A DNA stretch of 64,000 bases, from contig CAWKAR010000057.1 in assembly GCA_963847625.1 (NCBI GenBank), positions 1 to 64,000 of the forward strand, written 5' to 3'. The notes beneath the pieces were generated by a model. It was not told the DNA's origin. It was given only the letters and a program-made list of their open reading frames with translations, and did not search any database. Origin of the DNA: a candidate division FCPU426 bacterium (lineage in GTDB: Bacteria > Oederibacteriota > Muellerivitia > Muellerivitales > Muellerivitaceae). Below are positions 7,767-39,922 of the stretch, piece by piece (the first letter of the stretch is position 1; each line of letters starts with the position of its first letter). The position numbers and the translations under genes were made by a program.

Positions 7767-9369
7767 AAAGGTTAAATGCGGCCTTTACGTCAGGGTATCA
7801 AGCCAGAACCAACTAAGCCCGGAATATAACTCCCTGGCAAGCCAAAGGGAGAAATTAGAGGCTTACTGCAAAAGCCAGGAAGGTTTTGAAGTTTATAGGG
7901 TCTATGAGGATGGGGCATTTTCGGCTGATAGTATGGACAGGCCACAATTGCAAGCCATGTTGACCGATATTCGTTTTGGGAAAATCAACTGCGTTTTGGT
8001 TTACAAGATTGACCGGCTCACCCGTTCGGTTAAGGACTTTAATACCCTTCTGGAAATTTTCGAAAAGTACAAGGTCAAATTCGTTTCAATCACCCAAAGC
8101 TTAGACACTACCAGCCCGTCAGGCCGCTTGATGCGAAATATCATTGTGGACTTCAGCCAATACGAAAGGGAGATGACTTCCGACCGCACCAAGGACAAGA
8201 TGCACCAAAGGGCGGAAAAAGGAATGTGGAACGGGGGGTAGTGCCTTTTGGGTACAAGAACGAGAATAAGAAGCTGGTCATTCATCCCACACGAATCCCC
8301 CATTGTTCAATTCATGTTCCGTCAATTCTCACAAGAGCCTTCCCTTGCCAAGCTAAGGGAAAAACTCAGGCTTAGGGGATATATGAACCGTGCCGGGAAG
8401 GAATGGGACAAAACCGCAATCATGCATATACTTAAAAACCCGGTTTATTGCGGGAAAATTCGGATAGGTGAACAAATCTATAAAGGGCTTCACGAATCAA
8501 TAGTTGAGGAAGCCCTATTCTTGCGGATTGAGAGATTGACGCCCGACCGCACACACCCCAAAACCAAGATTGAAAGGCCGTTCCTGTTAAAGGGGTTGAT
8601 TAGATGTTCCTATTGCGGTTCTTACATGACGCCCCATTACACCCTGAAGCACAGGAAAGACGGTTCTACCCATGCTGTTTGTTATTACCGATGCACCAAA
8701 ACAACCCATTTCAATAATCAATCCTGCAAGATCAGACACATCAACGCCGATTTTGCGGAAAATTGGGTCATAAGTTCCTTAACCCAAGTTACCTACAATG
8801 ACGTTTATTTAGAAACCACTATCGAGGAAATAAACAAGAACCTACTTGGAAAAACGAATAATTTGGAAAAGGAAGTGGATAACCTCAAGAAGAGTTTAGA
8901 AGAAGTGGAAAGCAAGATAGACCGCTATGTGAAGGCAATAGGGGAAGGAACCACTACCGCCAAACTCATAGAAAAAGAAATCAAAGTCTTAACGGAAGAT
9001 AAAAGAAAATTGGAAATCCAATATGAAGCGGCCCAAATAGACTTTAACAGCCAAGCAATGGCCGCTTTCGACGTTCAATTGATAAAAGAGAGTTTGAAAA
9101 GTTTCCGTGATAGCTTTGGGGCTCTCACGACCGAGGAAAAGGCGCAAACTCTACAGAAGTTTCTCAAGACCATCTTGGTTTATCCTGAAAAGATGTCTCT
9201 TGATGTTTATGAATTACCCACCTTTTCCGTCGGTTCGCAAAAGCGTTTAAAATGGCTCCCCGGGTTGGACTCGAACTGGCGCACAATAGCCTTTGAAATA
9301 CCATTATTTTACCGTCCTGGAATAAAAGGCAGGAATTCTTTGAAAAATTCGGGTTTGAAGGAGAAATAA
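7756..9369 (+). CDS. Full-length large serine recombinase, interrupted by two compensating 1-bp indels (about 8235 and 8287)
   Basis: YVRVSS catalytic motif, DRPQL, KIDRLTRS, and zinc ribbon CSYCG...YYRC. The conserved VPFGYKNENKKLVIHP segment sits in a shifted frame between the two ORFs. Confidence 0.88.
9253..9276 (-). other. tRNA 3'-end remnant (T-loop to CCA), putative att core
   Basis: Minus strand reads GTTCGAGTCCAACCCGGGGAGCCA; no tRNA 5' part is adjacent. Confidence 0.7.
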
Positions 9370-20818: not shown

Positions 20819-21280
20819 TTATTGATGGGCCGAGGGTACCCCTTTGTCGTTTCCGGGCCCGGCCTCCGATTTTATAAAGCCGTTGGATTTATCGAAGCGG
20901 GTTTCACCCTTGATAAACGCGTTATTATCGTTGGTCTTGGAATACTTGAGGTAATTGCTGTCCTTTAAGAACCCTCCCTTGGAATTCTTCAGGAAGGCGC
21001 TGGTCTTTGGGGATTTTCTTCTCAGTTTCCTCGACACTTGGCTTTTGTCGTGGGCGGAAAAATTCTTAACGCCCTTTAATGACTTACTGTCCCCTCCGCC
21101 CGTTCCCGGGGGAAGCGGCTGGGGGTTCAACATCGTGTGTTTGCCCTTCGTGCCTTTATGATGTTTTGACGGCGTCTTTGGACCCGTTGCCGTTGTTGCA
21201 TTTGAATTCGCGTCGGCCAGAGCCAACCCCGTTCCTGCTAAAAACAGCAAACCCGCTAGTATCGCAATCATACGTTTCAT
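20819..21280 (-). CDS. Small secreted low-complexity protein with LNPQPLPP and repeated (F/Y)(L/I)K motifs
   Basis: Signal peptide shared with the 21526 and 37609 paralogs; GGAGG RBS. Confidence 0.75.
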   Translation of the reverse strand: MKRMIAILAGLLFLAGTGLALADANSNATTATGPKTPSKHHKGTKGKHTMLNPQPLPPGTGGGDSKSLKGVKNFSAHDKSQVSRKLRRKSPKTSAFLKNSKGGFLKDSNYLKYSKTNDNNAFIKGETRFDKSNGFIKSEAGPGNDKGVPSAHQ

Positions 21281-21459: not shown

Positions 21460-21488
21460 AAAAAGGCGTCCCCTATGAGGGGACGCCT
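21460..21488 (-). terminator. Intrinsic terminator; a near-identical copy lies at about 37532-37561
   Basis: GGCGTCCCCT-loop-AGGGGACGCC followed by a T tract on the minus strand. Confidence 0.8.
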
Positions 21489-21525: not shown

Positions 21526-21987
21526 TTATTTGAGGTTAGCTCCCCCTTGGCCCGGAGGGGGTTTGATTCCCGGGGGAAGCGGTTGGGGATTCAACTCTGG
21601 GTTTTTGTTGTTATCCCCCTTATCCCCGGGTTTATGGTTTCCAGGCCTTGTGCGCATCACTCCATCCTCGCCATCTTTATATAGCGAGATACTAGTATCC
21701 CCAGCCTTCCCTTTTTTATGGTTCCTATGTTTTGTTCGCATGACGCCATCTTCCCCATCTTTATACTCCGCATGTTTGCGGTTAACCCCATCTTCTCCAT
21801 CTTTATATTCCGGATGTTTTGTGTTTCTCAGGTGCGAGGACACGCCTTTCCCGCCATTTTTTTGGCCCTTATGATGATTCTTGATTAACGTCGTCGGCGC
21901 CGACGCCGTCGCCGGTGTATCAGCCAAAGCCAGCCCCGTCCCGGCTATAAACAGTAAACCCGCCAATACCGCGATAGTCCGTTTCAT
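21526..21987 (-). CDS. Small secreted protein with three YKDGEDG repeats and ELNPQPLPP
   Basis: Signal peptide, RBS, terminator, and a paralog at 37609-38046. Confidence 0.8.
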   Translation of the reverse strand: MKRTIAVLAGLLFIAGTGLALADTPATASAPTTLIKNHHKGQKNGGKGVSSHLRNTKHPEYKDGEDGVNRKHAEYKDGEDGVMRTKHRNHKKGKAGDTSISLYKDGEDGVMRTRPGNHKPGDKGDNNKNPELNPQPLPPGIKPPPGQGGANLK

Positions 21988-22352: not shown

Positions 22353-25062
22353 CTATTTCAAAAGAAGGATTCTTTTTATTTTCCGGTTATAAGGCTCGGT
22401 GAGGTACAAGAGATAGACCCCGCTGGCGCAGGGATCGCCATATTTGTTTTTTCCGTCCCATTGGTAGGAAACGGCAATGGGTGCTTCCAAATGCCCCTCG
22501 TCCAGAGTCCGAATGTGTTCACCGGCCGAATTGTAAATCCGCAATGAATAATTGCCTGGATACTTGCAATAGGAAACATAAATCGAAATCGGGCTGTTGG
22601 AAGGGGTAAATTTATTCCCCGAGACATAGAACTCGTCGCAGGACGGAAGGGGGGTGGAAGTCGGTGTGGGAGTGATGGACGGCGTGGGTGTACTAGTGGA
22701 GGACGGCGTGGGGGTCGCGGTAGGTGTCGGTGTTGGGACGACAAGGGCGAATTTCGCCACGAAGGCGTCATTCCCGCCGCCTAAAACCGTCTGATAGGCC
22801 CCGCTGGTCGTGGGGAAATCCGATGATGAAGAAAATCCTGTCACATAAGCGGGCCCTGTCCCATCCAGTGCAATGGCACAGCCCTGATCGTACCCGCTCC
22901 CGCCCAGGTAGGTTGAATAGACCAAGGCGCTTCCTGAGGCGTTCAGTTTCGTTACGAAGGCGTCGTCATTACCCCCGTAAACCGTCTGATAGGCCCCGGC
23001 AGTCGTGGGAAAACCCCCGCCGGCATATCCCGTCACGTATGCGTTTCCGGCCGAATCCACCGCGATGGCATAGCCTTGATCATTGCCACTCCCGCCCAGG
23101 TAGGTCGAATAGGCCAGGGAGTTTCCTGCGGAGTTCAACTCCGCCACAAAGGCGTCACTCGTGCCGCCACCATAAGCGGTCTGGTAGGCACTTGGCGTCG
23201 TGGGAAAACCCCCGTCGGCAAATCCAGTTACATAGGCGTTTCCCGACGAATCCACCGCGATTCCATAGCCAGTATCGTCCCCACTGCCACCCAGGTAGGT
23301 CGAATAGACCAAGTCATTCGCCCCCCCACCCGCCGGATTAAGCTTCGCCACAAAGGCGTCAGTCGTGCCACCACCATAAGCAGTCTGGTAGGCCCCTGCT
23401 GTCGTGGGGAAATTTCCGTTTGTTTGTCCCGTCACATAAGCGTTTCCTGTCCCATCTACCGCGATGCCATACCCGACATCCACTCCGCTTCCCCCCAGAT
23501 AGGTCGAATAAACTAAATCACTCGCCCCCCCCACCCGCCGGATTAAGCTTCGCCACAAAAGAATCGCTTGGAAAGGTACCCCCACCGCCGCCGTAAGCGG
23601 TCTGATAGGCACCGGCAGTCGTGGGGAAGTTGGTGGAACTTGTTTCCCCCGTCACATATATGTTTCCCGAAGCGTCCAGTGCGATGCCTTGACCCGATTC
23701 GCCGTATAACAACCCACTGCCACCCAGGTAAGTCGAATAAACCAAGGAATTTCCCGCGGCATTCAGCTTCGCCACAAAGGCGTTACTCCCGCCGCCACCA
23801 TAAGCGGTCTGATAGGCCCCTGGCGTCGTGGGGAAACCCCCACTGGTGGATCCCACCACATACGCGTTCCCCGACCCATCCACCACGATGGCAGAACCCT
23901 CATCAAAACCATTCCCTCCCAGGTAGGTCGAATAAACCAAAGCGCTTCCGGATGGGTTCAACTTCGTCACGAAAGCATCGCAAGGGATGATTCCCGACCC
24001 GCCCCCAAAAACCGTCTGATAAGCTCCTGGTGTCGTGGGGAAGCCCACTCCGGCAAGTCCCGTCACATAGGCGCTCCCGTTCAGATCCACGGCAATGCCA
24101 AAACCGTCATCGACATGGGCGCCGCCCAGGTAAGTCGAATAAACGAGGGTTGGGTCAATCACCAGGGGACAGGTCTTGTCATAGGTGCCCAGCTCGAACC
24201 CGATCTTGTGGCCGCCCCGCGCAACATAACGGCCTTCCACAATTGTTTTCCGGATTGTCCATTGTCCATTTTCAATTTTTTCTTTTTCTTGGTAAATCCC
24301 GGGAGACTTGAACACCACATTCCCGCCCGGTGCTTTTAGGACAAGGTTTCCTTGCTCGTCCACTTTTGCTTCATTCGCGCCCTCATACGTCAACTGGATG
24401 GCGCTTGGATCGGCACCCGGATTCACTACGAAGTCGTATTCCAATTGGCCATGACCCCCGCCCTGAGCACCGTCGAACGGGTTGCCGTAATACACCATGT
24501 CGATGCCGGGATAGACGTTTTCGGCCTTCACCTTCGCGTACAGGGGAACTTTCGTCCGCCATTTCGAGGGGTCGTTGCCGATGAAGTAATTGGCGGTTCC
24601 TTCCATCTTTTCCCCGCCGGTCCATTCGGCCTTGGGGTCGGCGCCCTGCAGCCTCAATCGCAAAACATCTTGAGAACCAGTTAGGAGTGAGGAGTTAGGA
24701 ATTTGGAATTTATGGCCAAGTCTTCCAGTTTTGGGCGAAATATCTTTAGACCCGCCTCGCTTTAACACAAACACCGCTTCCCGGGGGGTGATGAAAAGGG
24801 TGTAGCCGCTTCCCCGCGAGAGGAACCTCACCTGGGGATCGGTTTGGCCTTCGTTGGCCTCGAAGTAAAGGGGAAGCTTGCCGTAGGCCTGGTTGATCTG
24901 GAGTTGATTGGCGGTAGGCGCTCCGGTGGGCTGAGGATGAACGGTAGATTGGTTCCTGTGATGGGGGACCGGACGGATAACTCCCAGGCAGAAATATATA
25001 GCCGTGCCAAAAACCAAAAGGCCAATGACATTGCCATATCGGTTGGTTTTCAAACCAATCAT
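22353..25062 (-). CDS. SBBP beta-propeller repeat surface protein with T/P linker and FlgD-Ig-like C-terminal domain; +1 indel in the C8 run at about 23525-23532
   Basis: [12 protein letters not shown]-domain and YSTYLGG/GIAVD..GNAYVTG repeats. Removing one base joins the ORFs 23518..25191 and 22353..23612. Confidence 0.85.
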
Positions 25063-25082
25063 AGGATATTGACTCCGAATGT

Positions 25083-27830
25083 TTACTTTAACAGAAGGAT
25101 TCTTTTTATTTTCCGGTTGTAAGGCTCGGTGAGATAGAAGAGATAGACCCCGCTGGCGCAGGGGTCGCCATATTTGTTTTTTCCGTCCCAATGGTAAGAA
25201 GCGGATATCGGGGCTTCCAAATGCCGCTCATCCAGGGTTTTGATGTGTTCCCCGGCCGAATTGTAAATCCTCAAGGAATAGTTGCCCGGGTACTGGCAAT
25301 AGGAAACATAGATGGAAACCGGCCCATTGGTGGGCGGGAAAGCATTTTTAGATACGTAGAACTCGTCGCAGGACGGAAGGGGCGTGGAAGTCGGTGTGGG
25401 AGTGATGGACGGCGTGGGGGTATGGGTGTTGGTAGGCGTCGGAGTGACGGTCGGCGTGTTGGTGGGCGTTGGGGTCATGGTGAATGTCGGGGTGTTCGTG
25501 GGCGTGTTCGTGACCGTAAAGGTTAAGGTCATGGTGGGGGTATGGGTGGCGGTCGGGGTCAGGCTCATGGTTGGCGTGGGAGAAGGGGTGGAATTATTGG
25601 TGACGGCCGCGTCAAACTTGGCCACAAAAGCGTCATAGACGCCTCCATAGGCCGTTTGGTAGGCCCCGCCGGTCGTGGGAAAACCCTGTTGGGACCATCC
25701 CGAAACATAAGCGGCCCCCGACGGGTCCACCGCGGTGCTCCAACCGACATCGCTACCGCTCCCGCCCAGGTAGGTGGAATAAACCAAATCGCCCGCCCCC
25801 CCACCCGCCGGGTTTAGTATGGTAAAAAAGGCATCGACATCACCGCCAAAAATCGGCTGGTATGCCCCGCTGGTCGTGGGTAAAGTCCCCTGGGTCCATC
25901 CCGTCACATAAGCGTTGCCCGGCCCGTCCACCGCGATGCCATAGCCTTCAACGCTTTTGGCGCCTCCCAGGTAAGTCGAATAGATGAGAGTGCTTCCCGA
26001 GGCATCCAGCTTCGACACAAAAGCGTTCTGGCTGCCCCCCCAAGCAGTCTGGTAAGCCCCGCTGGTCGTGGGGAAACTCCCCTCGGTCCACCCTGTCACA
26101 TAAGCCTCACCCGACCCGTCCACCGCGATGCTATAGGCCTCACTGTCGCTTCCACCTAAGAAAGTGGAAAAGACGAGGGAAGATCCCGCCGCGTCCAGCT
26201 CCGTCACAAAGGCGTCTTCAACCCCCCCAAAAGCCGTCTGGACCGCCCCGCTGGTCGTGGGAAAATCTGCGGAATCGGTATATCCCGCCACATAAGCGTT
26301 GCCCGATCCATTCAATGCGAGGCCAAGGCTATGATCAACATTACTCCCGCCCAGATAGGTGGAATAAAGCAGGGCGCTTCCCGAGGCGTTCAGCTTCGAC
26401 ACAAAAGCGTCAAAATAGCCCCCTCCAAAAGCCGTCTGATATGCCCCGCTGGTCGTGGGTAATCCCCCGGCAGTCGATCCCGCCACGTAAGCGTTTCCCG
26501 ACCCGTCCACCGCAATGCCGGATCCCTGGACACCGCCGTTCCCGCCCAGGTAGGTCGAATAGACCAGGGAAGAGCCCGTCGCGTCCAGCTTCGACACGAA
26601 AGCGCTGCCGCTTATTCCCACGCCGGCGTAAACCGTTTGATAGGCCCCGCCGGTGGTGGGGTAATTACTGGAATCGGTGTTGCCCGTCACGTAAGCGCTG
26701 CCCGACCCGTCCACCGCGACGCTAAAACCATAATCGTCGCCGCTCCCGCCCAGGTAGGTCGAATAGACCAGGGAAGAGCCCGTCGCATCCAGCTTCGACA
26801 CGTAGGCATCTTCATTGTTGCCAAAAACCGTCTGGAATGCCCCACCGGTTGTGGGGAAACTCCCTTCAGTCCACCCTGTCACACAAGCCTCCCCTGACCC
26901 ATCCACCGCAATGCCCATGCCTTCTTCCCAGTTGCTTCCACCCAGGTAGGTCGAGTAATCCAATGCCGGGTCGATCACCAGGGAAAGGGTTTTTACGTAG
27001 TTTCCGGTCTCAAATCCAATTTTCCCATCCGCCCGGACCTTGTAGGCGCCGTCTATTTTGGTTTTTTCCGCGCCTCGTTCCTGGTAAACAACCGGGGCTT
27101 TGAAAGCCACTTCCCCTTGGGCCAGGTGAAACACCAGGTTTCCCTGTCCGTCCACTTCCGCGTTTTTGGCGCCCTCGTAGCCGAGGCCAATGGCGCCCGG
27201 GTCCGCGCCCGGCTTTACGATGAAGTCGTATTCCAGTTTTCCCCGCGCCCCGTAATACACCATGTCGATTCCGGGATAGACTTCCTTTATCCCCACTTTG
27301 CCGTAGTTGGGAATGTTAGTGCGCCATTTGGAATGGTCATTCCCGATGAAGTAATGGCTCTTCCCCCCCGCCTCTTCCATCCCCGCGAATTCAGCCTTGC
27401 GGTTGCCGCCTTCGAGTCGTATGCGCAAAACATCCGGGGGATTAGTTTGGAGTGAGGAGCCCTTCGATGCACTTCGTTTACTCAGGGTGGGTTGCCGGGG
27501 TGAATGATTAGCATCACCACGTTTCAGCACGAACACAGCCTCGGCGGGTGTCAGAAAAAGGTTGTATCCGCCGCCCCGTGCGAGGAACCTCACCTGGGGA
27601 TCGGTTTGGCCCTCGTTGGGCTCGAAGCAAAGGGGAATATGTCCGTAATTTTGATTAATTTTTAGTTGTGCGATCTGATTTGGCTGGGAAACTTTTGAGG
27701 AAACGTTTGATTTTTTTGGAGAGGAATTGTTATGGGTTGCAGAAACCAAACCCATTCCAAAAACAGCGATGACGCAGGTAAATAAACCGGCGTTCAAAAG
27801 CTTCATGCGATTTTTGGATAGTTTCGGCAT
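25083..27830 (-). CDS. SBBP beta-propeller repeat surface protein with FlgD-Ig-like C-terminal domain
   Basis: Same architecture as the neighbouring paralogs. Confidence 0.88.
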   Translation of the reverse strand: MPKLSKNRMKLLNAGLFTCVIAVFGMGLVSATHNNSSPKKSNVSSKVSQPNQIAQLKINQNYGHIPLCFEPNEGQTDPQVRFLARGGGYNLFLTPAEAVFVLKRGDANHSPRQPTLSKRSASKGSSLQTNPPDVLRIRLEGGNRKAEFAGMEEAGGKSHYFIGNDHSKWRTNIPNYGKVGIKEVYPGIDMVYYGARGKLEYDFIVKPGADPGAIGLGYEGAKNAEVDGQGNLVFHLAQGEVAFKAPVVYQERGAEKTKIDGAYKVRADGKIGFETGNYVKTLSLVIDPALDYSTYLGGSNWEEGMGIAVDGSGEACVTGWTEGSFPTTGGAFQTVFGNNEDAYVSKLDATGSSLVYSTYLGGSGDDYGFSVAVDGSGSAYVTGNTDSSNYPTTGGAYQTVYAGVGISGSAFVSKLDATGSSLVYSTYLGGNGGVQGSGIAVDGSGNAYVAGSTAGGLPTTSGAYQTAFGGGYFDAFVSKLNASGSALLYSTYLGGSNVDHSLGLALNGSGNAYVAGYTDSADFPTTSGAVQTAFGGVEDAFVTELDAAGSSLVFSTFLGGSDSEAYSIAVDGSGEAYVTGWTEGSFPTTSGAYQTAWGGSQNAFVSKLDASGSTLIYSTYLGGAKSVEGYGIAVDGPGNAYVTGWTQGTLPTTSGAYQPIFGGDVDAFFTILNPAGGGAGDLVYSTYLGGSGSDVGWSTAVDPSGAAYVSGWSQQGFPTTGGAYQTAYGGVYDAFVAKFDAAVTNNSTPSPTPTMSLTPTATHTPTMTLTFTVTNTPTNTPTFTMTPTPTNTPTVTPTPTNTHTPTPSITPTPTSTPLPSCDEFYVSKNAFPPTNGPVSIYVSYCQYPGNYSLRIYNSAGEHIKTLDERHLEAPISASYHWDGKNKYGDPCASGVYLFYLTEPYNRKIKRILLLK

Positions 27831-27868
27831 GATTTTTCCTTTGTCTAATTATATCCCAAAGGGAGTTT

Positions 27869-30670
27869 TTACTTTAACAGAAAGATTCTTTTTATCTTCC
27901 GGTTATAAGGCTCGGTGAGGTACAAGATATAGACTCCGCTCGCGCAAGAGTCGCCATATTTGTTTTTCCCGTCCCAAAGGTATGAAGCGGCAATCGGCGC
28001 TTCCAAATGCCGCTCATCCAGGGTTTTGATATGTTCCCCGGCCGAATTGTAAATCCTCAAGGAATAGTTGCCCGGGTATTGGCAGTAGGAAACATAGATT
28101 GAGACTGGGCCGTTGTCCGGGGAAAATTCGTTTTCCGAGACGAAGAAATCGTCGCAGGACGGAAGGGGCGTGGAAGTAAGCGTTGGCGTGATGGTTGGTG
28201 TGGGGGAGGTGGTTAGGGTCGGGGAATTCGTCGGCGTCGGGCTGTATGTCGCCGTTGGAGTATTGGTGGCGGTGAAGGTGTTCGTCAGCGTCATTGTTGG
28301 CGAGAGGGTCTGGGTAGGCGTGGGGCTTGGAGTCAAGGTGGGACTATTTGTGGGAGTGGATGTGGGAGTCGCTGTTGGTACAGCGTAGGTGAATTTTGTC
28401 ACAAAGGCGTCTTCGCCGCTGGTGAATATCGTCTGGTAAGCCCCCGAGGTGGTTGGAAAGTCCGTGGAAAAGCTGTTCCCGGCCACGTAAAAATTGCCGG
28501 CGGGGTCGAGGGCGATGGCCTCCCCCACGTCCAGGTTGTTTCCCCCCAAGTAGGTGGAATAGATGAGATTGGAACCCGAGGAATTCAAGACCGCCACCAT
28601 CGCGTTGATAGGCCCATTGAGGGCCGGCTGAAAGGCATTGGGAGTCACGGGAAAATTGGGGGACCGGGTTTCACCCATGATATAGGCGTCACCGCTTGGG
28701 TCCAAGGCGATGCCGGAGCCAAATTCGAGAGCGGATCCGCCCAAATAAGTTGAGTAAACCAACCCGGTCCCCGAAGGGTTCAGTTTGGCCACGAAAGCGT
28801 CCCCGCCCCCCCCATAGGCGGTCTGGTAGGCGCCTGCCGTGGTGGGAAAAATAGCGGAGAGCGTATAGCCCGTTACATAGGCGTCTCCGGCTTGGTCCAC
28901 CGCGACCCCCCTTCCCGTATCCTGACCCCCGCCTCCGTTGCTCCCGGCCAAAAAAGTCGAATAGATCAAATCCGCCGTTCCCAGCCCCTTTAGCCTCAAC
29001 TTGGAGATGAAAATACTTTGAGAAGCCGGCAAGAGGGTCAGGAACGCGCCGGGAGTAACGGGGAAATTTGCCGAAAAGGTATAGCCGGTGATATAGGCGT
29101 TGTTTTGACTGTCCAAAGCGATCGCCTCGGCTTCTTCACCCGTTGATCCCGCCAAGTAGGTGGAATAGAGAAGGGTGCTGGCTGCGGGGTTAAGTTCACA
29201 GACAATCACATGCGGCAGGGCGGGCCCTGTGGGGTTGGTGGGCTGGTAACAGCCGGGGGTCGTGGGAAAGCTCGCGGCATAGCTTTCGCCCGTCACATAG
29301 GCGTCACCGCTCGCGTCAACCGCGATGCCAAAACCTTCCCCATCCGTGCCCAAATAGGTGGAATAAAGAAGAGTGCTTCCGGTCGGGTCCAGCTTGGAAA
29401 CAAAGGGGGTTAAGAAACCAACCGTGGCGGTGGTCTGGTAAACGCCCGGGGTCACGGGAAAATCCCCGTCGGTTCTCCCGGCGATATAGGCGTTCCCAGC
29501 CGAATCCAAAGCGATGGCAAAACCCGTGGCATTCACCGACCCGCCCAGATAGGTGGAATACAACAACGCCGACCCGCTCGGATCAAATTTGGCCACAATG
29601 GCGCAAACGGTGTTAATGACGCCGCCAGTTGGCGTGGGTTCGAACGACCCGGGAGTTGTTGGGAAATTGGTGCAGCTGGTGTCCCCCGTCACATAAGCGT
29701 CTCCGCTCGCGTCCACGGCAATCCCAAAGCATTCATTGACCTGTCCGAACTGGTTGCCCCCCAGCAGGGTGGAATAATCCAGGACCGGGTCGATCACTAG
29801 GGCCTTGGTGCGGTCGTATTCCTTCACCTCAAAACCCACTCGGTTCCCTTCCTCCAGCTTGTAACGGCCCTCCCGGGGGATTTTTTGCCCCTGGTCTTCC
29901 TGATAAACCGCGGGTGCTCGAAAAACAACTGTTCCCTGGCCCGTCCGCAGTTCCATATCTCCTTGTTCGTTCATCCGAACATGCTGCGCCCCATCGACTT
30001 TCATGTGGATGGCCTGGGGGTCACTTCCCGGTTGCGCCACAAAATCGAATTCCAGCTGACCCTGGCCCTTGCCCTGAGCACCGTCGGACGGGGTCCCGTA
30101 ATACACCATGTCAATGCCGGGATATACCTCCTTCATCTTCACCTTGGCGTAATTGGGAATGTTGGTATGCCACTTGGTAGGGTCATTGCCGATGAAGTAA
30201 TTGCTTTTCCCCTCCGCCTCTTCCATCCCCTCGAATTCCGCTAAACGATTCCCGCCTTCAATTCTTAATCGCAATACATCCGGTTTTATCGATTTAAAGG
30301 ATTCTTTAGGAATCATGCCTTTAGCTGGGCCTCTGAGTCTCTGTGGTGAAAGTTTTCCTTCACCCCATTTGAGGACAAACACCGCTTCGGCAGGTGTTAT
30401 ATAAAGAGAATAACCGATTCCCCTGGCGATAAACCTGACTTGGGGATCCACCTGGCCCTGGTTGGCCTCGAAGTAAAGGGGCAATTTGCCATAGGCCTGG
30501 TTGATTTGAAGTTTGCCGGCAGGAGATGCTTGGCTGCAGTAAGTATGTAGAGGAGGTTGTATCTTGGCGCGGGGGCTTGGGTTGGTGGTTCCCAGGCAGA
30601 AATAAAAAGCGGTTCCAAAGACCGAAAGTCCAATAATGTTTCTATATAGAAAGGGGTATTTAGCTTTCAT
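27869..30670 (-). CDS. SBBP beta-propeller repeat surface protein with FlgD-Ig-like C-terminal domain
   Basis: Same architecture as the neighbouring paralogs. Confidence 0.88.
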
Positions 30671-30999
30671 GCTCAGTTCTTAAGCGGTTGGTATGGTTTA
30701 TAGCTGGATTTCCTTAGTCGTGCCCGGCAAGGCTCCTATGGGAATCCATGGGTGAAATTATACCGCTTCTTTTAGCCCCACCTGACTCAATACACCATTT
30801 GTAGTCCTAACTATGGCGGTAGTAGGAGGAAAGCCATGGGTCTTCGCGGAAGAAATTGGGGATAGGAAAGTTTTAATTTTTAAGATGTTTTGCATTCAAT
30901 TTGAATGATTCATCCAGGGACAAGAAGGTAAGAATTTTTGAATTTTTTTTCAAGCACGATCCCTATTTCTAAAGTGTGTGGGCCTGGACCCCTTTTTCT

Positions 31000-31259
31000 T
31001 CAGACTCGTTGCCGTTGCTTCCGTATTTGTCTTTTACAGCATCGTAGGCGAAATCAAAATCGATGCCGGAGGCTATCTTTCGCAGAGGATGGTGGGGCCG
31101 CACCCGTTTTTCCATATTAACGTTCGTGAAGAACAGATTGCCTTGAGGCTCAGGCTGTATTCCCATCATGGGTGAGGCTCCTCTGAAATTGAGATTTTTA
31201 CCGTCTGTTCTCCCTTTAATTCTTTCGAGAATTTATTCAAGTGATTTGGGCAACAGCCC
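31000..31259 (-). mobile_element. Truncated IS remnant (IS1182/IS5-like transposase N-terminus plus left end)
   Basis: MMG..Q..LF...VRPHHPLRKI..IDFDF.YD.V...Y..NG.ES; end-like sequence GGGCTGTTGCCCAAA at 31259-31245. Confidence 0.7.
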
Positions 31260-31445
31260 GTGTAGGCCTGGCCACTTTTCCTGTTGAAAGCTTAATGGGA
31301 GTTCGGTATGCGGAGCGAAGAGCCTGGCCCTTGATTTTTTCTCATCATTTTGGTTTACCTTCCTTGGCAAGGTGTTATTATTTTAAAAATAACAGGGGAG
31401 CGGTGGTTCCTATTGAGGCCGCTACATTAAATTTTGGAGGGATTG

Positions 31446-32450
31446 ATGAGATATTTATTACTGCTTCCGATTCTTTTGCTTTTCGCCATCCTGCCTGTTT
31501 CCTGCGGCTCCAGTAGCAGCCCCAATTCGCCCCCTCCCGCCGCCACCCATACGCCCACTTCCTCGCCCACCATCACCACCTCCCCGACCATTACCAGTAC
31601 TCCTATACCCGGCCACGCCTTCGACACCAGCTGGTCCCTTCTGGGCACTGATATATTGGGCATCGCCGTTTACGGCACCACCCTGTACGCCGTGGACGGG
31701 GGAAATGGGATCGTCACGACCACCAATCTGACAGGCGGAAATCCTGCCACCTTCGCCACCAGCCTGCCGGGCGGTTTTGGGGTAGCGGTGGACACCTCAG
31801 GCAACGTTTACGTCACTGACGCCGTTTCCAAGCTTTACAAATATAATTCCTCCGGGATAAATCTCTTGGGAACCTTCGGCACCGGCACGGCGGGAAACTC
31901 GAGCAGCCAATTGAATGCCCCGCAGGGCTTGGACGTGGATTCGAGCGGCAACGTCTACATTGCCGACACGAACAACAACCGTATCGTGAAGCTGGACTCC
32001 AGTTTGGCTTTTTCAGCCGCCTTCACGACCGCCTTTGCGACCGGTTTTTTACTCCCTTACGACGTCAAGGTTTCCGGAAGCAACATCTATGTTTTGGACT
32101 CGGGACGGAACCGGGTCGTGGAATTGGACGGGAGCGGGACACCCGTCACCCAATGGGGTAGTTACGGGAACACGGGCAATGGAACCTTTCACACCCCCGA
32201 ATTCCTGGCCGTCGACCACAACACTGGTAATGTCTACGTGTCGGACTCCGTTAATTTCAGGATTGAGCTTTTCGACCCGAACGGGACCTATTTGACCCAA
32301 TGGGGCGGAGCCGGCACGGGAAACAGCCAATTCGGCGGCAATACCACCATTGATTCCCCGAGGGGACTCGCGGTGGATTCCACGGGCAAGATATATGCCG
32401 TTGACGCCATCAATTTGGCCATCGGCACCATCAAGGTCTTCGGACCCTAG
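31446..32450 (+). CDS. NHL-repeat beta-propeller lipoprotein
   Basis: LPVSC lipobox, T/P linker, PQGLDVDSSGNVYIADTNNNRI repeats. Confidence 0.88.
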   Translation: MRYLLLLPILLLFAILPVSCGSSSSPNSPPPAATHTPTSSPTITTSPTITSTPIPGHAFDTSWSLLGTDILGIAVYGTTLYAVDGGNGIVTTTNLTGGNPATFATSLPGGFGVAVDTSGNVYVTDAVSKLYKYNSSGINLLGTFGTGTAGNSSSQLNAPQGLDVDSSGNVYIADTNNNRIVKLDSSLAFSAAFTTAFATGFLLPYDVKVSGSNIYVLDSGRNRVVELDGSGTPVTQWGSYGNTGNGTFHTPEFLAVDHNTGNVYVSDSVNFRIELFDPNGTYLTQWGGAGTGNSQFGGNTTIDSPRGLAVDSTGKIYAVDAINLAIGTIKVFGP

Positions 32451-32699
32451 TGCCGTTTTCCGCAGCAATCCCAATTCCTGTTGTTCCCTGAAAGGCTAGA
32501 AAGGTAGTAGGGCAATAATGGTTCTTCGCGGAAGAAATTGGGGGGGGGTAGAAGTTTTTATTCTATAGATATTTCTCAGTCAATTCCTAATTGCTAATTC
32601 CTCATTCCTAATTTTGTTTTTTCGGAGGATGTATCTTTCGCAAAAGGTTCGAGGAATTATAAAAAATTTTAATGTAGGCCGCCCTATGTTCGCGTTTTC

Positions 32700-33698
32700 T
32701 TATTTATAAATGGTCACTGTAGCTGAATAACCCGCGGCGAAGGATGAATTCCACGTTGGGGCGCCCGTAAAAGACGTGGTTTGGTTCTGGACATCGGCTT
32801 GCACCAGGTAAGTCACCCCTCCCGTCGCGGGATAGGCCGTGACCGGTATGGCAAAAGGGGAATCAATATCCGGGGGTGACGAATAGTAGGTCTGGAGGTA
32901 ATTGTTGGTGCCTATCTGCTTTAAAACAAAGAGGTAATCATTGCTCCCTTCCGCGGTCCAAGTGGCCGTGGTTCCCGCGGAATTAATGGAAATGGTTCCA
33001 TCGGGGCCGGATACCTGCGCTGAAAGCGCCGTTCCGATGGATGTGCTGACTGACATCTGGTAGACACCGGATTGGTAAGAAAGCGCAAAGTCGCTTAAGG
33101 AATAGTAAGCCTTAGTACCACCGGAGATGGAGTTAAAAGGTGCGGTGACCGACCCCGATGGGCCTGTAATGACCACCAAATCAGTGGTTTCGGGCGCCCC
33201 ATTGACCTGCATGTTGATGTCGGCCCTGAGGTAGGATGCCGTACCGTATACAATTCCCTGGACCCATATGGTTGGTACTGGCGTCAGCGTCGCGGTTCGG
33301 GTAACCGTAGGGCTTAAGGTGTTGGTCGGCGTCGGGGTGATGGTCGGTGAGTTCGTGATCGTGGGAGTATTTGTGATGGTGGGGGTATTCGTAATAGTGG
33401 GCGTGTTGGTGCTGGTGCCAGTATTAGTGGGTGTATTAGTAATCGTCGGAGTATTCGTGATCGTGGGAGTGTTGGTGATGGTCGGAGTGAGGGTGAAGGT
33501 GGAGGTGCTTGTTTTGGTCGGCGTGTTGGTAATCGTGGGCGTCAAACTGATGGTCGGGGTGTTCGTGGGGGCGGACGACGCCACGGGCGAGGCGGGGCTT
33601 TGGTTCCCGGAACTGCAGGAGATCACGATAGGGATGGCGGTTATGAGTAAAAAGGGGAAAAAGCCTAATGAAATCATCCCAAAAGGACGAGCCTTCAT
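32700..33698 (-). CDS. Putative lipoprotein with long TNTPTI repeats
   Basis: VISC lipobox-like motif; Thr/Pro tandem repeats. Confidence 0.75.
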   Translation of the reverse strand: MKARPFGMISLGFFPFLLITAIPIVISCSSGNQSPASPVASSAPTNTPTISLTPTITNTPTKTSTSTFTLTPTITNTPTITNTPTITNTPTNTGTSTNTPTITNTPTITNTPTITNSPTITPTPTNTLSPTVTRTATLTPVPTIWVQGIVYGTASYLRADINMQVNGAPETTDLVVITGPSGSVTAPFNSISGGTKAYYSLSDFALSYQSGVYQMSVSTSIGTALSAQVSGPDGTISINSAGTTATWTAEGSNDYLFVLKQIGTNNYLQTYYSSPPDIDSPFAIPVTAYPATGGVTYLVQADVQNQTTSFTGAPTWNSSFAAGYSATVTIYK

Positions 33699-34046
33699 AA
33701 AGCACCCCTCAAGCCATCAATTTTATTCATGAAAATCATCCTGTTATTTGACGAGCCTGATAGTGATTAGACGGCCAGCACCGGGAAATAGTCGCAAATA
33801 TAACTTAAACAAGGGGTTGGGCTCTTCGATATGCTTCGCTACTCAGGGCAGGCCTCCAGGGAACCCTGTTCTATCGGCAGGCAACCTTCAAACAACAATT
33901 AAAAGCTTATAAATGCTCCGCACAACCGGCTTTCCGGGCTAGAAGAAATTCGGGGGGAAGAAACACAATTTACAATGAATAATGGACAATGAAGGATTGA
34001 TGGCTAATCGTTCTCGGAAGAGTTTTCAAGCACGCGATGGAATAAC

Positions 34047-35651
34047 CTATTTCAGAAGAAGAACCCTTTTTATTTTCCGGTTATAAGGCTCGGTGAGGTA
34101 CAAGACATAAACCCCGCTCGCGCAAGGGTCTCCGAATTTGTTCTTACTGTCCCAAAGGTAAGAAGCGGCAATCGGCGCTTCCAAATGCCCCTCATCCAGA
34201 GTCCGAATGTGTTCCCCGGCCGAATTATAAATCCGCAATGAATAATTGCCCGGATACTTGCAATAGGAAACATAGATTGAGACTGGGCCGTTGCCCGGGG
34301 AAAATTCGTTTTTCGAGACGTAAAACTCATCGCAGGACGGAAGCGGTGTTGAGGTCGGCGTCGGGGTGACGGTCATGGTTATGGTTTCCGTGGGGGTGTT
34401 AGTAGGGCTAAACGTAGGCGTGTTGGTAACGGTGAAGGTATCCGTCGGGGTACTCGTTGGCGTGGGCGTCGATGTTGGCGTAGCCGTAAGCGTAGCGGTG
34501 AGGGACACCGTAGGTGTCATCGAAGCCGTTGCCGTACTGGTAAGGGTTGCGGTGGGCGCTAGGGCGCTTACTTTCCGAATCCGGTTGTTGGAAGTATCGG
34601 CGATATAAAAGTTACCCGCACTATCCACAAACACGGCCATGGGTAAATTGATTTGGGCCGCTGTCGCGGGCCCGCCGTCCCCCGAGGAACCCAGGGTGCC
34701 ATTTCCAGCCACCGTGGTAATCACGCCTGCAATCGCATCGACAAACCGGATACGGCCATTCCCGGAATCCGCGATATAAAGGTTTCCCATTCCGTCCAAT
34801 GCCAAACCGCCGCAAAAAGAAATCTTCGCGGCCGTGGCGGGCCCGCCGTCCCCCGAATAACCGGATGTACCGGTACCCGCTACCGTCGTGATGATTCCCG
34901 TCACCGCATCCACCCGGCGGACGCGATTATTGTTAAAATCCGAGATATAAATATCCCCGGACGCGTCCAGCGCCACATCATGAGGGGTGAAAAGATTGGC
35001 CGCCGTGGCCGGCCCGCCGTCCCCTGAGTAACCCGGCGTACCCGTGCCCGCCACCGTGGTGATGACACCGGTCGCCGCGTCCACTTTTCGGACACGGTCG
35101 TTTATAAAATCGGCGATATAAATGTTTCCGGTATTATCAACCGCGACTCCCGGCGGTTGATTCAGTTGCGCCAAGGTCGCCGGCCCGCCGTCCCCTGAGT
35201 AACCCGGCGTAGCCGTACCCGCCACCGTGGTGATGACGCTGGTACCCGCGTCCACGCGCCGGATGCTGTTGTTGGAGGTATCCGCGAAATAAATGTCCCC
35301 GGAACCATCCATTACCAGGTTATAGGGATTGTTGATCATTGCCGCCGTGGCCTGCCCCCCGTCCCCCGAGTAACCCGCCGTACCCGTGCCCACTACCGTG
35401 GTGATGACACTGGTGCCCGCGTCCACGCGCCGGATGCGGTTGTTGGAGGTATCCGAGAGATAAATGTTTCCCGCGCTGTCCACCGCCACGCCATAGGGGC
35501 TGTTGATCCGGGCGGCGGTGGCCGGCCCGCCGTCCCCCGAATATCCCCATGTGCCATTGCCTGCCACCGTCGTGATGATTTGGCCCCGGACGCCGGAAGA
35601 AAATAGGAGAAGAATTATTAAAAGAGGAAATAATTTATGGAGTGCTTTCAT
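34047..35651 (-). CDS. NHL-repeat surface protein with FlgD-Ig-like C-terminal domain
   Basis: Six ITTVAG.G..GYSGDGGPAT repeats; C-terminal domain nearly identical to that of the SBBP paralogs. Confidence 0.9.
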   Translation of the reverse strand: MKALHKLFPLLIILLLFSSGVRGQIITTVAGNGTWGYSGDGGPATAARINSPYGVAVDSAGNIYLSDTSNNRIRRVDAGTSVITTVVGTGTAGYSGDGGQATAAMINNPYNLVMDGSGDIYFADTSNNSIRRVDAGTSVITTVAGTATPGYSGDGGPATLAQLNQPPGVAVDNTGNIYIADFINDRVRKVDAATGVITTVAGTGTPGYSGDGGPATAANLFTPHDVALDASGDIYISDFNNNRVRRVDAVTGIITTVAGTGTSGYSGDGGPATAAKISFCGGLALDGMGNLYIADSGNGRIRFVDAIAGVITTVAGNGTLGSSGDGGPATAAQINLPMAVFVDSAGNFYIADTSNNRIRKVSALAPTATLTSTATASMTPTVSLTATLTATPTSTPTPTSTPTDTFTVTNTPTFSPTNTPTETITMTVTPTPTSTPLPSCDEFYVSKNEFSPGNGPVSIYVSYCKYPGNYSLRIYNSAGEHIRTLDEGHLEAPIAASYLWDSKNKFGDPCASGVYVLYLTEPYNRKIKRVLLLK

Positions 35652-35909
35652 GGCTTCATCCGGAATCAGGATTTAAGTTTATTATCTCACATGTCCTGAA
35701 ATAACGACGGTTGGGAAGCTTTATCCAATGCCCGATCGGGACATGAATGGCGGCAGTAGGAGGAAAACGATGGAACTTCGCGGAAGAAATGGGGGAGGAA
35801 GAAACACAATTTACAATGAATAATGGACAATGAAGAATTGATAGCTCATTGTTCTCGGAAGAGTTTTCAAAACCTCAAACCCTTACCGAATATCTGAGTG
35901 ATATGAATA

Positions 35910-37192
35910 TTATTGAATTTCCCGGATCATGTTGTTGCCTGAATCCGCCACATAAACGATCCCCGTATTGCCCACCGCAACCCCAAAGGGGCCTTTGAAG
36001 GAAGCCCCCGTGCCCGTGCCGTTCGAAGAACCCGGAGTCGTCGACCCCGCCAGCGTGGACACCACGCCTCCGGGGGTGATTTTGCGAATCATGTTGTTGC
36101 CGCAATCCGCGACATAAACGGTGCCCGAATCATCCACGGCCACGCCGATGGGATAATTAAACGTGGCGGCGGTACCGGTGGCGTTCGTGGCCCCGGTGAC
36201 GCCGGCTTGCCCCGCCAGGGTCGAAACCATCCCTCCCGGCGTGATCTTCCGGATCAGGTTGTTGAGCGAGTCGCCCACATAAACATTCCCCGCGCCGTCC
36301 ACCGCCACACCTTGGGGCCAATAAAAGGAGGCGCCCGTGCCTGTTCCGTTCGCGGAACCGGGGCTCGAGGTGCCTGCCAGGGTCGAGACGAGCCCGCCGG
36401 AGGTGATGACCCGGATCATGTTGTTGTACCGGTCGGCGACATAAACATTTCCCGAAGCATCCACGGCCACGCCTTGGGGCCCGTTAAACGATGCCGCCGT
36501 TCCAACACCGTTGGAGGAACCGTAGGCCATGGAGCCCGCCAGGGTCGTCACCACGGCTCCCGGCGCTATTTTCCGGATCAGGTTGTTGCCGAAATCCGCG
36601 ACATATACGTTTCCGGAGCCGTCCACCGCCACCCCGTCCGGGCCGTAAAACAAGGCGGCCGTTCCCGTGCCGTTGGAGGATCCCCCCCAGATCGAACCCG
36701 CCAGCGTCGTCACGACCCCCCCTGGTGAAATTTCCCGGATCAAGTTATTCGTGGAATCCCCCACGCAAACATTTCCCGAGGAATCCACAGCCACTCCGAT
36801 GGGGAAGCTGAAGGAGGCGGCGGAACCCGTGCCGTTCGTGGAACCAAAGGTCGTTGAACCGGCCATGGTGGACACCACGGCCCCGTTGGTCATCGCGGTG
36901 GGGTGGAGGTGAAGGTGCAGGTATTCATGGGGTAATTGCAGGGCGTGCTGGTGTTGACCGGGGTGAAAGTATTTGTGGGTGTGAGAGTGAGCGTCGGGGT
37001 GAGGGTTTTGGTGGGGGTGCAGGTGTTCCCAGGATAGCCGCAAGGAGTAAGGGTCGATGTGGGTGTGGGAGTCGCGGTGTGCGCGGGCGGTGGTGAAGAA
37101 GGGCTTTTATTATTGCTGCAGGCGAGCGGGAAAAACCAAAAAAACGATAACATTAAAAGAATGAAAACAAGCAGATAAATTAATCGGCGCAT
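35910..37192 (-). CDS. NHL-repeat lipoprotein with a -1 indel at about 36900
   Basis: PLAC lipobox in ORF 36890..37198 and NHL repeats in ORF 35910..37043; adding one base in the G run joins them. Confidence 0.8.
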
Positions 37193-37608
37193 AAACACCC
37201 CCCGGCAAAAGCATCTTCAAAAAAGTTCATACAGCTTACCCCTCCCACGATTATTGGACAACTTTTAACAACTATGAAGTATTTATCCTTAAAACAAAGG
37301 TCGGCTGCGAGAAGTCCAAAACGATGGAACTTCGCGGAAGAAATTGGAGAGGGGTGTTCAGGTTGGATTTATGTCTAAATTTTCGGAAGAGTTTGGCGGG
37401 ATAAAGCAAGGGGGAAATGCCTCAAAAACAGATCTTGTAAAATGTACCCTACTACACGCTGACCCGTCTCCCGAAGTCTTGACATAGGGAGAGGTGCGGG
37501 AAGTCTGACCCCCTTTTTTTCAACCAATAATAAAAAAGGCGTCCCCTCGAGGGGGACGCCCAAAACATTGACGGCTAAGTTTCTAACTGAAGTATTGGTG
37601 ACTTTAGG

Positions 37609-38046
37609 TTATTTTCCCCATTGGCCCGGCGGGGGTTTCATTCCAGGCGGCATAGGTTGGGGGTTCAATTCCGGATTTTTGATGGTTCCATCACCTCCCC
37701 CGGGTTTATGGTTTCCGGGTCTTGTGCGGTTCACTCCATCCTCGCCATCTTTATACTGCGAGATACTAGTATCCCCAGCATTCCCATTTCTATGGTGTTT
37801 TGCGCGCATAACACCATCTTCTCCATCTTTATATTCCGGATGTTTTGTGTTTTTCAGGTGAGAGGACACGCTTTTCCTGCCATGCTTTTTTTCCGAGGCG
37901 TGACCACTGTTTTTCGCGTCATGATGCTTTAACGATTTCTTGTGGGCGGCTGTGATCCCTCCGTCAGTGGCATGCGCGTCGGCCAGAGCCATCCCCGTCC
38001 CGGCTATAAACAGCAAACCTGCCAAAACCGCGATAATATTTTTCAT
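37609..38046 (-). CDS. Small secreted protein with two YKDGEDG repeats, DAKNSGHASEK and ELNPQPMPP
   Basis: Paralog of 21526-21987, including the downstream terminator. Confidence 0.8.
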   Translation of the reverse strand: MKNIIAVLAGLLFIAGTGMALADAHATDGGITAAHKKSLKHHDAKNSGHASEKKHGRKSVSSHLKNTKHPEYKDGEDGVMRAKHHRNGNAGDTSISQYKDGEDGVNRTRPGNHKPGGGDGTIKNPELNPQPMPPGMKPPPGQWGK

Positions 38047-38384
38047 GGATACTGCCTCCTCTTTTATGCTTGCGTCGGTTTTTGCCCTCCGCCATGAGAC
38101 GAGGGGCCCAGTGAAAAGATTCCAACGTTATTGGGTGGATTATATATCATCAGCCTGCCGGCCCAAATATTTCATTTTAAAGTTTTTAAATGGATATTCG
38201 GAAAAAAGGGTCCAGGAAAAAAGGGTCAAGGCCTACATATTACACTATAGACTCGCCCCAAAACCTCATGCAAAAAAACAGGCTCTTATTATGCCACCAA
38301 TTTGAACAATGAAAAATGAACCCATTCGACAAGCTCAGGGCTGACGGATTCTAGGGATTTACCGCAGGCCCATTCTGAAAGCAA

Positions 38385-39263
38385 TCACCCCTTGGGTGCA
38401 TTGGCCCTCAGGAACTTTCTAACCCTCTTCTTCGCTTCTTCCCGGTTCGTGAAAATGGACACATGCTCCCCGCCCTCGATGGTGAGCAGTTCCGCCCCGG
38501 GAATCCTTTCCCCCAAAACCTTCCCGTGCTTCTCGAAGGGCACCATCCGGTCCGCGGTGCCGTGAATGACCAGCGTGGGAACGGCGACTTTTTCCAGGGG
38601 AAAATCCGTGGTCTGGGTCACCCTTATGTCGTTCTCGGTCCCGGTCAGCCGCAGGTGCATCCGGTCGAAGGTGCTTAATATCAGTTCCATCAAAAGGGGC
38701 CCCGCCTGGGGGTCCTTTAATGTCCTGGCCCGAACGGCCGGATCGGCAATGGAGGGGCGGGCGGCTTTGTCCGGGTCCTTCCCCGCCTTTTTTTTCATCA
38801 TGGTGGAGAACCAGGGTATCCGGGCGATAAGCTTGAAAACCTGGAACGCGAAAGGGATGGGGGTATCCACCACCTCGCCGGTGGTCGAAACCAGGACCAG
38901 CCCCCAGCACCTCTCCCGGTGCCTCAGGGCAAAATGGATCGCGTTGGGGCCGCCCCCGGAAACCGCCATCACCGCCGTTTTTTTAACCCCGAGCGTATCG
39001 AGAAGGTCCGCCAGAAGGTCCGCCTGCTCCTCCGAGGTCTTTCCCGATTTCAACGGCGTCCGGAGGTAGCCGGGCCTGGAAACCCCGATGAACCGGTAAC
39101 CTTCCCCGCCGACGGTGCGGGCAAGAAGCAGGCTTTGGTCATAGCCCCCCATCGCCCCGTGGAGGCACAATATTGCCGGGCCTTCCCCATACTCGGCGTA
39201 TTCGACCGGTCCCCTGGGCGTTTGCAGGATTTTTGGTTCCGGATTTTTCGTGATCTCGGCCAC
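38385..39263 (-). CDS. Alpha/beta-fold hydrolase
   Basis: LHGAMGG, AVSGGG nucleophile elbow, LVIHGTAD and GGEH motifs. Confidence 0.9.
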   Translation of the reverse strand: MAEITKNPEPKILQTPRGPVEYAEYGEGPAILCLHGAMGGYDQSLLLARTVGGEGYRFIGVSRPGYLRTPLKSGKTSEEQADLLADLLDTLGVKKTAVMAVSGGGPNAIHFALRHRERCWGLVLVSTTGEVVDTPIPFAFQVFKLIARIPWFSTMMKKKAGKDPDKAARPSIADPAVRARTLKDPQAGPLLMELILSTFDRMHLRLTGTENDIRVTQTTDFPLEKVAVPTLVIHGTADRMVPFEKHGKVLGERIPGAELLTIEGGEHVSIFTNREEAKKRVRKFLRANAPKG

Positions 39264-39469
39264 TTTTTTTCCTCCCTGATTTTCTTTAACAGCTATTGGT
39301 TTCAGCGCACGTCGAGGAACATCTCGCGGAATTCAATTCCCTGTCTTTTCCCGCCCCGGACGGACCAGCACATCTGGATTCTTGAAGCCAAATCAGGGGC
39401 CATGTACCTATATGTAACATGGGAGCTTTATTTTCCTTCAGGCTCATTCTATGAAATTAAGGCCCAATC

Positions 39470-39890: not shown

Positions 39891-39922
39891 CGGAACCTGC
39901 CAGAGCGAAAAAAGTGATCGTC

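Follow-up and report, generated by a model that had tools for sequence, protein, structure and literature searches.

A loop of about 20 residues from a contractile nanomachine was found detached from its fold, nearly unchanged in sequence and with scrambled codons, on unrelated exported proteins of bacteria. The case described here comes from a window of 64,000 nucleotides (assembly GCA_963847625.1, contig CAWKAR010000057.1, positions 1 to 64,000) of a candidate division FCPU426 bacterium, in whose genome (G000; 4.43 Mb, 93.9% complete) the searches reported below detected no injection machine. Tentatively, the proteins may be regarded as Sec-exported, multivalent displays of a borrowed recognition peptide that would act outside the cell on a putative foreign partner.

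The flagged gene and its paralogs

The earlier note had described the flagged gene and one paralog as encoding low-complexity chains with a signal peptide, repeated YKDGEDGVxR and a terminal LNPQP(L/M)PP, and both genes were found again with these attributes. The relevant features of the window are the following.

21526-21987 (-): flagged gene, encoding 153 aa; Sec-type signal, then a basic chain of low hydrophobicity with three copies of the tube hairpin, C-terminal LNPQPLPP
21922-21987 (-): predicted signal peptide, aa 1-22, ending in ALA (sequence inspection); common to all four paralogs
21778-21810 (-): short hairpin copy 1, EYKDGEDGVNR, aa 60-70
21736-21768 (-): short hairpin copy 2, EYKDGEDGVMR, aa 74-84
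21625-21684 (-): full hairpin copy, LYKDGEDGVMRTRPGNHKPG, aa 102-121; donor tube residues ~51-70, strand-turn-strand
21571-21597 (-): ELNPQPLPP, aa 131-139; a separate, widespread repeat of exported proteins
21464-21488 (-): intrinsic-terminator-like hairpin downstream of the flagged gene (consensus scan)
20819-21280 (-): third window paralog, encoding 153 aa; signal and LNPQPLPP as in the flagged protein, tube hairpin absent
37609-38046 (-): paralog, encoding 145 aa; signal, NSGHASE loop, the hairpin twice, and LNPQPMPP
37888-37920 (-): DAKNSGHASEK, aa 43-53 of this paralog; matches a second tube loop, donor residues ~131-141 (pairwise E 0.002)
37699-37758 (-): full hairpin copy of this paralog, QYKDGEDGVNRTRPGNHKPG

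The genome encodes four paralogs with one signal peptide and LNPQP(L/M)PP. The fourth, located on contig C49, is 246 aa long and has four hairpin copies; here the hairpin runs on into a decayed version of the next strand and helix of the tube. The paralog at 37609-38046 contains, in addition to its two YKDGEDG copies and ELNPQPMPP, the word GRKSVS at aa 56-61. Both this gene and the flagged gene are preceded by a ribosome-binding site GAGGAGG. The terminator-like hairpin at 21464-21488 is weak on its own, as the consensus scan found 3 such elements with 2.6 expected. In composition the mature chains of these two genes are basic and poor in hydrophobic residues (pI 9.7, 12-14% hydrophobic residues, GRAVY -1.5); over the paralogs as a whole the values reach pI 10.3 and 16% hydrophobic residues. 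This suggests that the chains are mostly disordered.

It is scarcely credible that the genes are an artefact of assembly or annotation, or that their similarity to tubes is a chance product of low complexity. The chains are indeed of low complexity and match no family HMM. Against such an origin stands a syntenic three-gene cluster in a second genome of the same genus (G051), where it adjoins the same spermidine-synthase-like membrane gene and contains orthologs of the flagged gene (P0005) and of the third paralog (P0051); because of this cluster the genes cannot be put down to faulty assembly. Independent homologs (P0004, P0050) and a carrier in an NZ_ record of a named strain (L039) argue in the same direction, as do the GC content of the genes (0.51; genome, 0.52) and five matches of the back-translated YKDGEDG pattern in the window, compared with 0.00 in 100 shuffles.

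The third paralog contains seven aromatic-x-K words (FLK, YLK, YSK, FIK, FDK; for example FIKGE), and its homologs were confined to this genus-level group. Two of the paralogs are preceded by an element GGAA(C/T)-N-CGTC (window ~38097-38123, minus strand; contig C49 ~26050-26076, minus strand), which in our view resembles an ECF-sigma promoter; weaker versions lie upstream of the other two. As the signal of a regulon the element was rejected (6 matches in the genome, 3-8 in shuffles), and its sharing is attributed to paralogy.

Origin of the motifs in a contractile-injection tube

A phmmer search returned 48 homologs, 21 of which carry the gp19 domain PF06841 (best E 1.8e-9; scores inflated by repeats in both query and target). 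In pairwise comparison with the tube protein P0047, the E value was 1e-11 for the flagged protein; for the paralog at 37609-38046 it was 2e-15 over the main motif and 0.002 over the NSGHASE segment. The alignments to tubes cover only segments of 20-30 aa. The derivation of the motifs from a gp19-like/TIGR02241 tube, which the earlier note had proposed from recall, is thus upheld by these matches, as is its view that the segments are duplicated and out of order with the rest of the fold absent: donor residues ~131-141 come first, followed by 98-103 and then by the hairpin, 51-70. Among the segments that it had named as conserved, the hairpin and NSGHASE were confirmed, and RKSVS alone was found to be at chance level, with RKS[VI]S occurring 14 times in the six-frame ORFs of the genome. 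Its wider picture of proteins assembled from tube motifs holds for the hairpin and NSGHASE and fails for LNPQPLPP, which is not a tube motif; the class to which the proteins belong also borrows Hcp and cold-shock words.

The comparison with gp19 and TIGR02241 models that the earlier note had suggested turned out negative. With hmmscan against Pfam and NCBIfam, none of the three window proteins gave a tube match at E<=10, and the donor tubes passed. Nor do the motifs belong to a known, unrelated repeat family, since no Pfam or NCBIfam match exceeded its cut-off; the best Pfam match was DUF7751 (E 0.03, 15 bits with a cut-off of 27), and NCBIfam gave none. When the motif profile and the third paralog were each compared with PDB sequences, 0 matches were obtained, and the ESM Atlas returned no usable match for either the flagged protein or a relative from the acidobacteria, a result that does not prove absence.

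The donor is one subtype of contractile-injection tube. It is represented by a tube without signal peptide (L035, in a record named Deltaproteobacteria; PF06841 E 3e-26) that is encoded upstream of a sheath gene. The same conserved gene follows the tube at 9/9 loci of signal-less tubes and, within the available sequence, at 0/89 other loci; it has no Pfam match and is taken by us to encode a tail-assembly chaperone. With the inner tubes of contractile injection systems (CIS; PF06841 Phage_T4_gp19, TIGR02241; Afp1 6rao, Pvc1 6j0b, Algoriphagus 7adz, Anabaena All3324 7b5h, Streptomyces 8bl4) the window proteins share the hairpin of one subtype and, in the paralog at 37609-38046, a second loop, NSGHASE. 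Unlike these tubes they lack, as judged from sequence, a complete colinear beta-sandwich and helix and have no HMM match; their segments are repeated and out of order behind a Sec-type signal, and no sheath or baseplate was found in their genome. They carry the hairpin of the gp19/TIGR02241 family but are not members of it, since fold, score and context all fail to place them there.

Structural position of the main motif

Alignment, modelling and published structures identify the main motif as a protruding beta-hairpin of the tube, the one that connects each ring to the next. EYKDGEDG..RPG of the donor tube aligns opposite EYREG..KMPG of solved CIS tubes, and the motif corresponds to EY.G...PG in alignments with Afp1, Pvc1 and further CIS tubes of solved structure. 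In a model of the donor tube (pLDDT 66 from a 24-row alignment, 37 without alignment), strands 49-53 and 60-64 flank the DGEDG turn, and the top Foldseek matches of this model were the PVC, AFP and Streptomyces CIS tubes. In published work, the corresponding loop of gp19 and of the pyocin tube is a protruding hairpin through which a subunit contacts the following disk (PMC6088184), the equivalent L2,3 loop of Hcp is required for ring stacking (PMC4650826), and a loop-and-socket model of the tube has been described (PMC10034513).

The earlier note had considered the proteins as possible mimics that bind assembling tubes. The position of the motif is in keeping with a mimic. A complex prediction with four copies of the donor tube and a 34-aa hairpin gave a score of 0.00 (mark, 0.32), which speaks neither for nor against binding.

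Search for an injection machine in the genome

A whole-tube query with which full-length tubes were recovered from 4 genomes elsewhere in the phylum matched only the motifs in G000; it gave no match in G051, where no machine was found either. Searches of G000 for sheath, baseplate J and Hcp were likewise negative, and their positive controls matched. The PF06841 search of G000 gave no match, and none was obtained with its positive control. Within the window no tail gene was present among the 26 larger ORFs scanned with Pfam, in agreement with the earlier note; the full tube gene that might have lain elsewhere was not found in the genome at 93.9% completeness.

That the proteins serve as scaffold, as the earlier note had suggested, or as accessory of an injection machine or tube of the cell's own is very improbable in the light of these results. 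A machine could lie in the unassembled part of the genome, but whole tube, sheath, baseplate J and Hcp were not found in G000 and no machine is seen in G051, and among the 18 other genomes (of unstated completeness) with non-machine carriers of the motif 15 had no sheath match.

The hairpin as a portable peptide in other bacteria

An exact-pattern scan located the motif at 19 loci in genome_contigs and 79 (duplicates kept) in metagenome_contigs, with 0 matches in viral_contigs. By regular expression, the genome loci comprised 1 machine tube, 8 signal-bearing whole tubes (signal judged by eye) and 10 fragment proteins; the metagenome loci comprised 8 machine tubes, 22 whole tubes, 47 fragments and 2 unclassified proteins. 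Signal-less machine tubes therefore account for 9/98 public motif loci, the remainder being whole tubes, most of them with a signal, or fragments on unrelated scaffolds. A search with a hairpin profile gave 111 cluster representatives, of which 110 were kept after exclusion of P0153, an immunoglobulin-repeat-like protein without the motif. By HMM coverage, 86 of these are fragments and 24 whole folds, a fragment share that is overstated because clustering collapses conserved tubes. A signal, as defined by a hydrophobicity rule, was present in 20/24 whole folds, in 57/86 fragments, many of whose signal-less members look N-terminally truncated, and in 0/8 machine tubes.

Among the diverse hosts of the hairpin are small OB-like proteins, proteins of the DUF1566, Rhs and PEP-CTERM types, long acidobacterial chains of disordered character, and peptides of 46-56 aa. 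Carrier records found in the scan are named Acidobacteria, Syntrophaceae, Anaerolineales, Fimbriimonadales and betaproteobacteria, and inspection by eye of 19 + 20 loci revealed no common gene neighbourhood. The loop NSGHATE occurs in 26/86 fragments, whereas equally conserved core strands occur in 0/86. The profile had been seeded with the hairpin, which can therefore not be ranked as the most borrowed segment, and the preference for loops may only mirror an intolerance of soluble disordered chains for hydrophobic strands. One Rhs host is a signal-bearing protein of 1989 aa into which tube segments at three distinct places, and further borrowed words, are inserted (L048:5066-11032).

Exported whole tubes (Terracidiphilus, Syntrophaceae, Bacteriovorax; L037-L044) resemble the window proteins in having a signal and the same hairpin variant, often duplicated, without a sheath nearby; they differ in keeping the full fold and in exceeding the TIGR02241 cut-off (P0011). 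A published account of these exported tubes was not found. Several signal-bearing whole tubes (L050, L068, L078, L081, L108, L111; P0007-P0021) have a second hairpin in place of the N-terminal arm, and the machine-type downstream gene was not seen near them.

The poisoning that the earlier note had proposed, taken here to mean that the protein would cap or block the assembling contractile-injection or phage tubes of competitors, appears improbable. It is consistent with a motif that is the ring-joining hairpin and keeps subtype-specific residues, and with the arrest of assembly upon deletion or mutation of such loops in other tubes, as described in PMC10034513 and PMC4650826. However, the machine tubes of this subtype lack a signal, so that their assembly takes place in the cytoplasm of the producer, where an exported protein would not reach them; this makes poisoning topologically awkward. 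Furthermore, the hairpin sockets are occupied in finished particles, as follows from established CIS architecture; phages are not an evident target, given the lack of matches in viral contigs; and machine-type donors are rare (1/19 and 8/79 loci).

A few relatives look like peptide precursors with the tube loop as core. Three tiny ORFs of 46-56 aa (P0110, P0115, P0141) end in a hairpin that follows a Gly-Gly site directly or after a few residues; a further ORF, of 128 aa (P0034), has five hairpin copies between GG spacers. An unlikely reading extends this to the window proteins, which would be carriers cut at basic sites so that the motifs are released as free signal or interference peptides, similar to RiPPs or pheromones. 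The runs of Lys, Arg and His that flank the motifs in the window would fit such processing, as would the weak leader matches of P0141 (TIGR01847, E 0.22; XyeA, E 0.045). However, the tiny ORFs are singletons on contigs of 567-676 bp, without context. The resemblance to double-glycine-leader RiPP and bacteriocin precursors lies with some tiny relatives, which have a motif behind Gly-Gly; the window proteins themselves have a hydrophobic Sec-type leader ending in ALA, and no maturase, peptidase-containing exporter or peptide transporter was found with Pfam among the 26 larger ORFs of the window.

Selection, turnover and history

Among the 9 hairpin copies of the genome, 36 pairwise comparisons gave 139 synonymous and 8 non-synonymous codon differences, a count biased by the choice of copies by motif. 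All synonymous codons are in use among 75 DNA copies, and at positions left free by the scan pattern T was kept in 68/75 and K in 65/75 copies. Since synonymous sites are scrambled, selection acts on the peptide.

The ortholog of the flagged gene in G051 (P0005) has a single worn hairpin copy (profile E 0.004) that resembles a second variant, TRYRPGNNK, and a doubled LNPQPLPP in place of the hairpin copies. With the motif profile, 2/30 other genomes of the family gave a match, one of them a 16-aa chance frame; the tube motif thus appears young and dispensable in this lineage. Apart from G051, candidate protein matches across the phylum reflected only signal peptides and basic stretches (9 loci checked) and were rejected.

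The hairpin copies of G000 lie somewhat nearer to exported tubes than to those of machines, the best machine tube ranking 6-13 of 71. As this difference is slight, a route via exported tubes rests mainly on the intermediates, namely whole tubes in which an additional hairpin follows the signal peptide and the C49 paralog with its decayed strand and helix. The route probably led from a machine tube to an exported whole tube, then to an exported tube with duplicated hairpin, and finally to hairpin-only proteins.

The same data bear on a reading of low probability, according to which the proteins are generic basic, disordered envelope proteins, such as an Asr-like chaperone or matrix component, and the tube words are what is left of an exported tube after its erosion, retained as soluble hairpin or charge patch without a specific partner. 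Asr-type proteins are basic disordered periplasmic proteins with a signal followed by an unfolded chain rich in Lys, His, Pro and Gly, and the window proteins resemble them in signal and in a strongly basic chain of low hydrophobicity, a likeness of composition. The isoelectric points, the near-loss of the motif from the G051 ortholog, the decayed tube sequence next to the C49 hairpin, and the small signal-bearing Lys/His-rich proteins without motifs encoded by relatives (9 loci) are in line with this reading. It leaves unexplained, however, why near-invariant residues with scrambled codons persist across phyla, and why the motif has been duplicated and grafted onto folded proteins and tiny peptides. 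Moreover, the window proteins have no HMM similarity to Asr-type proteins and possess conserved borrowed motifs, which Asr-type proteins, to our knowledge, do not carry.

LNPQPLPP, Hcp and cold-shock words

LNPQPLPP is a widespread repeat of its own in exported small proteins. No donor was found for it among 51 matches, 0 of which have a Pfam domain. Widespread exported small proteins made of LNPQPLPPG repeats were observed (P0158-P0205), some of them ending in GGAGAGKIR.

Acidobacterial carriers hold the equivalent loop of Hcp: P0083 matches residues 35-66 of Hcp 5urw with E 0.012, and an Hcp-loop carrier shows 6/8 identities to a genomic Hcp. These related fragment proteins thereby resemble Hcp/TssD and orphan or 'evolved' Hcps of type VI secretion systems (T6SS; PF05638) in carrying the L2,3 loop. 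Evolved Hcps retain the fold that forms rings and are released by way of the T6SS; the fragment proteins, in contrast, have peptides only, and no Hcp was found in G000. Signal-bearing, divergent Hcp-like ORFs (L144, L145) were seen in two Terracidiphilus genomes, alongside genes for gp19-like tubes with a signal. In G051, an extra gene lies between the two orthologs (L049:9864-10427), with a C-terminus in common with the third paralog; its words GGAGSGKA, RKAGG and SGGDRP are loosely Hcp-like, a resemblance without significant support (one T4 gp5 match, E 0.06; no 6/7 match to ORFs of the Hcp loci).

In some relatives, words from cold-shock proteins or a complete cold-shock domain are present as well. 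One signal-bearing whole tube, P0119, is fused to such a domain.

Proposed function

In the explanation put forward here, the genes would encode Sec-exported, mostly unfolded and positively charged carriers that display several copies of the hairpin; the paralog would add the second tube loop, and all would carry the unrelated word LNPQPLPP. The hairpin, which in the donor tube would originally grip the next ring, probably builds nothing in the G000 cell now. The carrier would act as a multivalent ligand outside the cytoplasm, with a sequence-specific partner that is apparently not encoded in G000. This partner could be the socket of a tube-fold protein of another organism, or a receptor that reads tube epitopes; signal-bearing tube homologues without sheath are common. 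A socket cannot be the whole story, since the class also borrows cold-shock words, for which there is no tube socket.

On a broader and more doubtful view, many bacteria of soil, peat and sediment might export 'epitope collages', disordered proteins and tiny peptides composed of ring-joining loops from the injection weapons of neighbours (CIS tube, Hcp) and words of other abundant proteins, as decoys or false signals for a widespread extracellular recognition system. Their readers could be tube sockets or receptors for epitopes of bacterial weapons, and the genes of G000 would be a young example with fast turnover, its cassettes swapped among species of one genus.

A literature search on the motif strings and the concept, which covered few subscription papers and no supplements, found no description of the class, and exported tube-loop peptides thus appear to be undescribed. 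Contributed here are the assignment of the motif to the inter-ring hairpin, the naming of the donor subtype and the intermediates. Short conserved motifs fall below HMM cut-offs, so that the class is invisible to routine annotation. The pattern of reuse implies an extracellular partner that has apparently not been described so far. If the peptides do bind tube sockets or sensors, they would provide ready-made probes or inhibitors of tube assembly and would represent a new layer of bacterial competition.

Genomic surroundings

A cluster of genes for exported proteins that combine SBBP/NHL beta-propellers, Thr/Pro stalks and C-terminal FlgD-Ig-like domains (22353-42133) spans the region between the flagged gene and its paralog and extends beyond them. 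Within it, two overlapping ORFs of 557 and 419 aa (22353-25191, minus strand) jointly resemble the adjacent 915-aa SBBP beta-propeller/FlgD-Ig gene and may represent a single gene broken by a frameshift. The C49 paralog has IS elements in its vicinity and, immediately upstream, a gene pair (L001:9254-10953) that presumably resembles a type IV toxin-antitoxin system (AbiEi/AbiEii-like). Two recombinase/zinc-ribbon ORFs in the window (9-1139 and 8248-9369) suggest an integrated element at the start of the contig.
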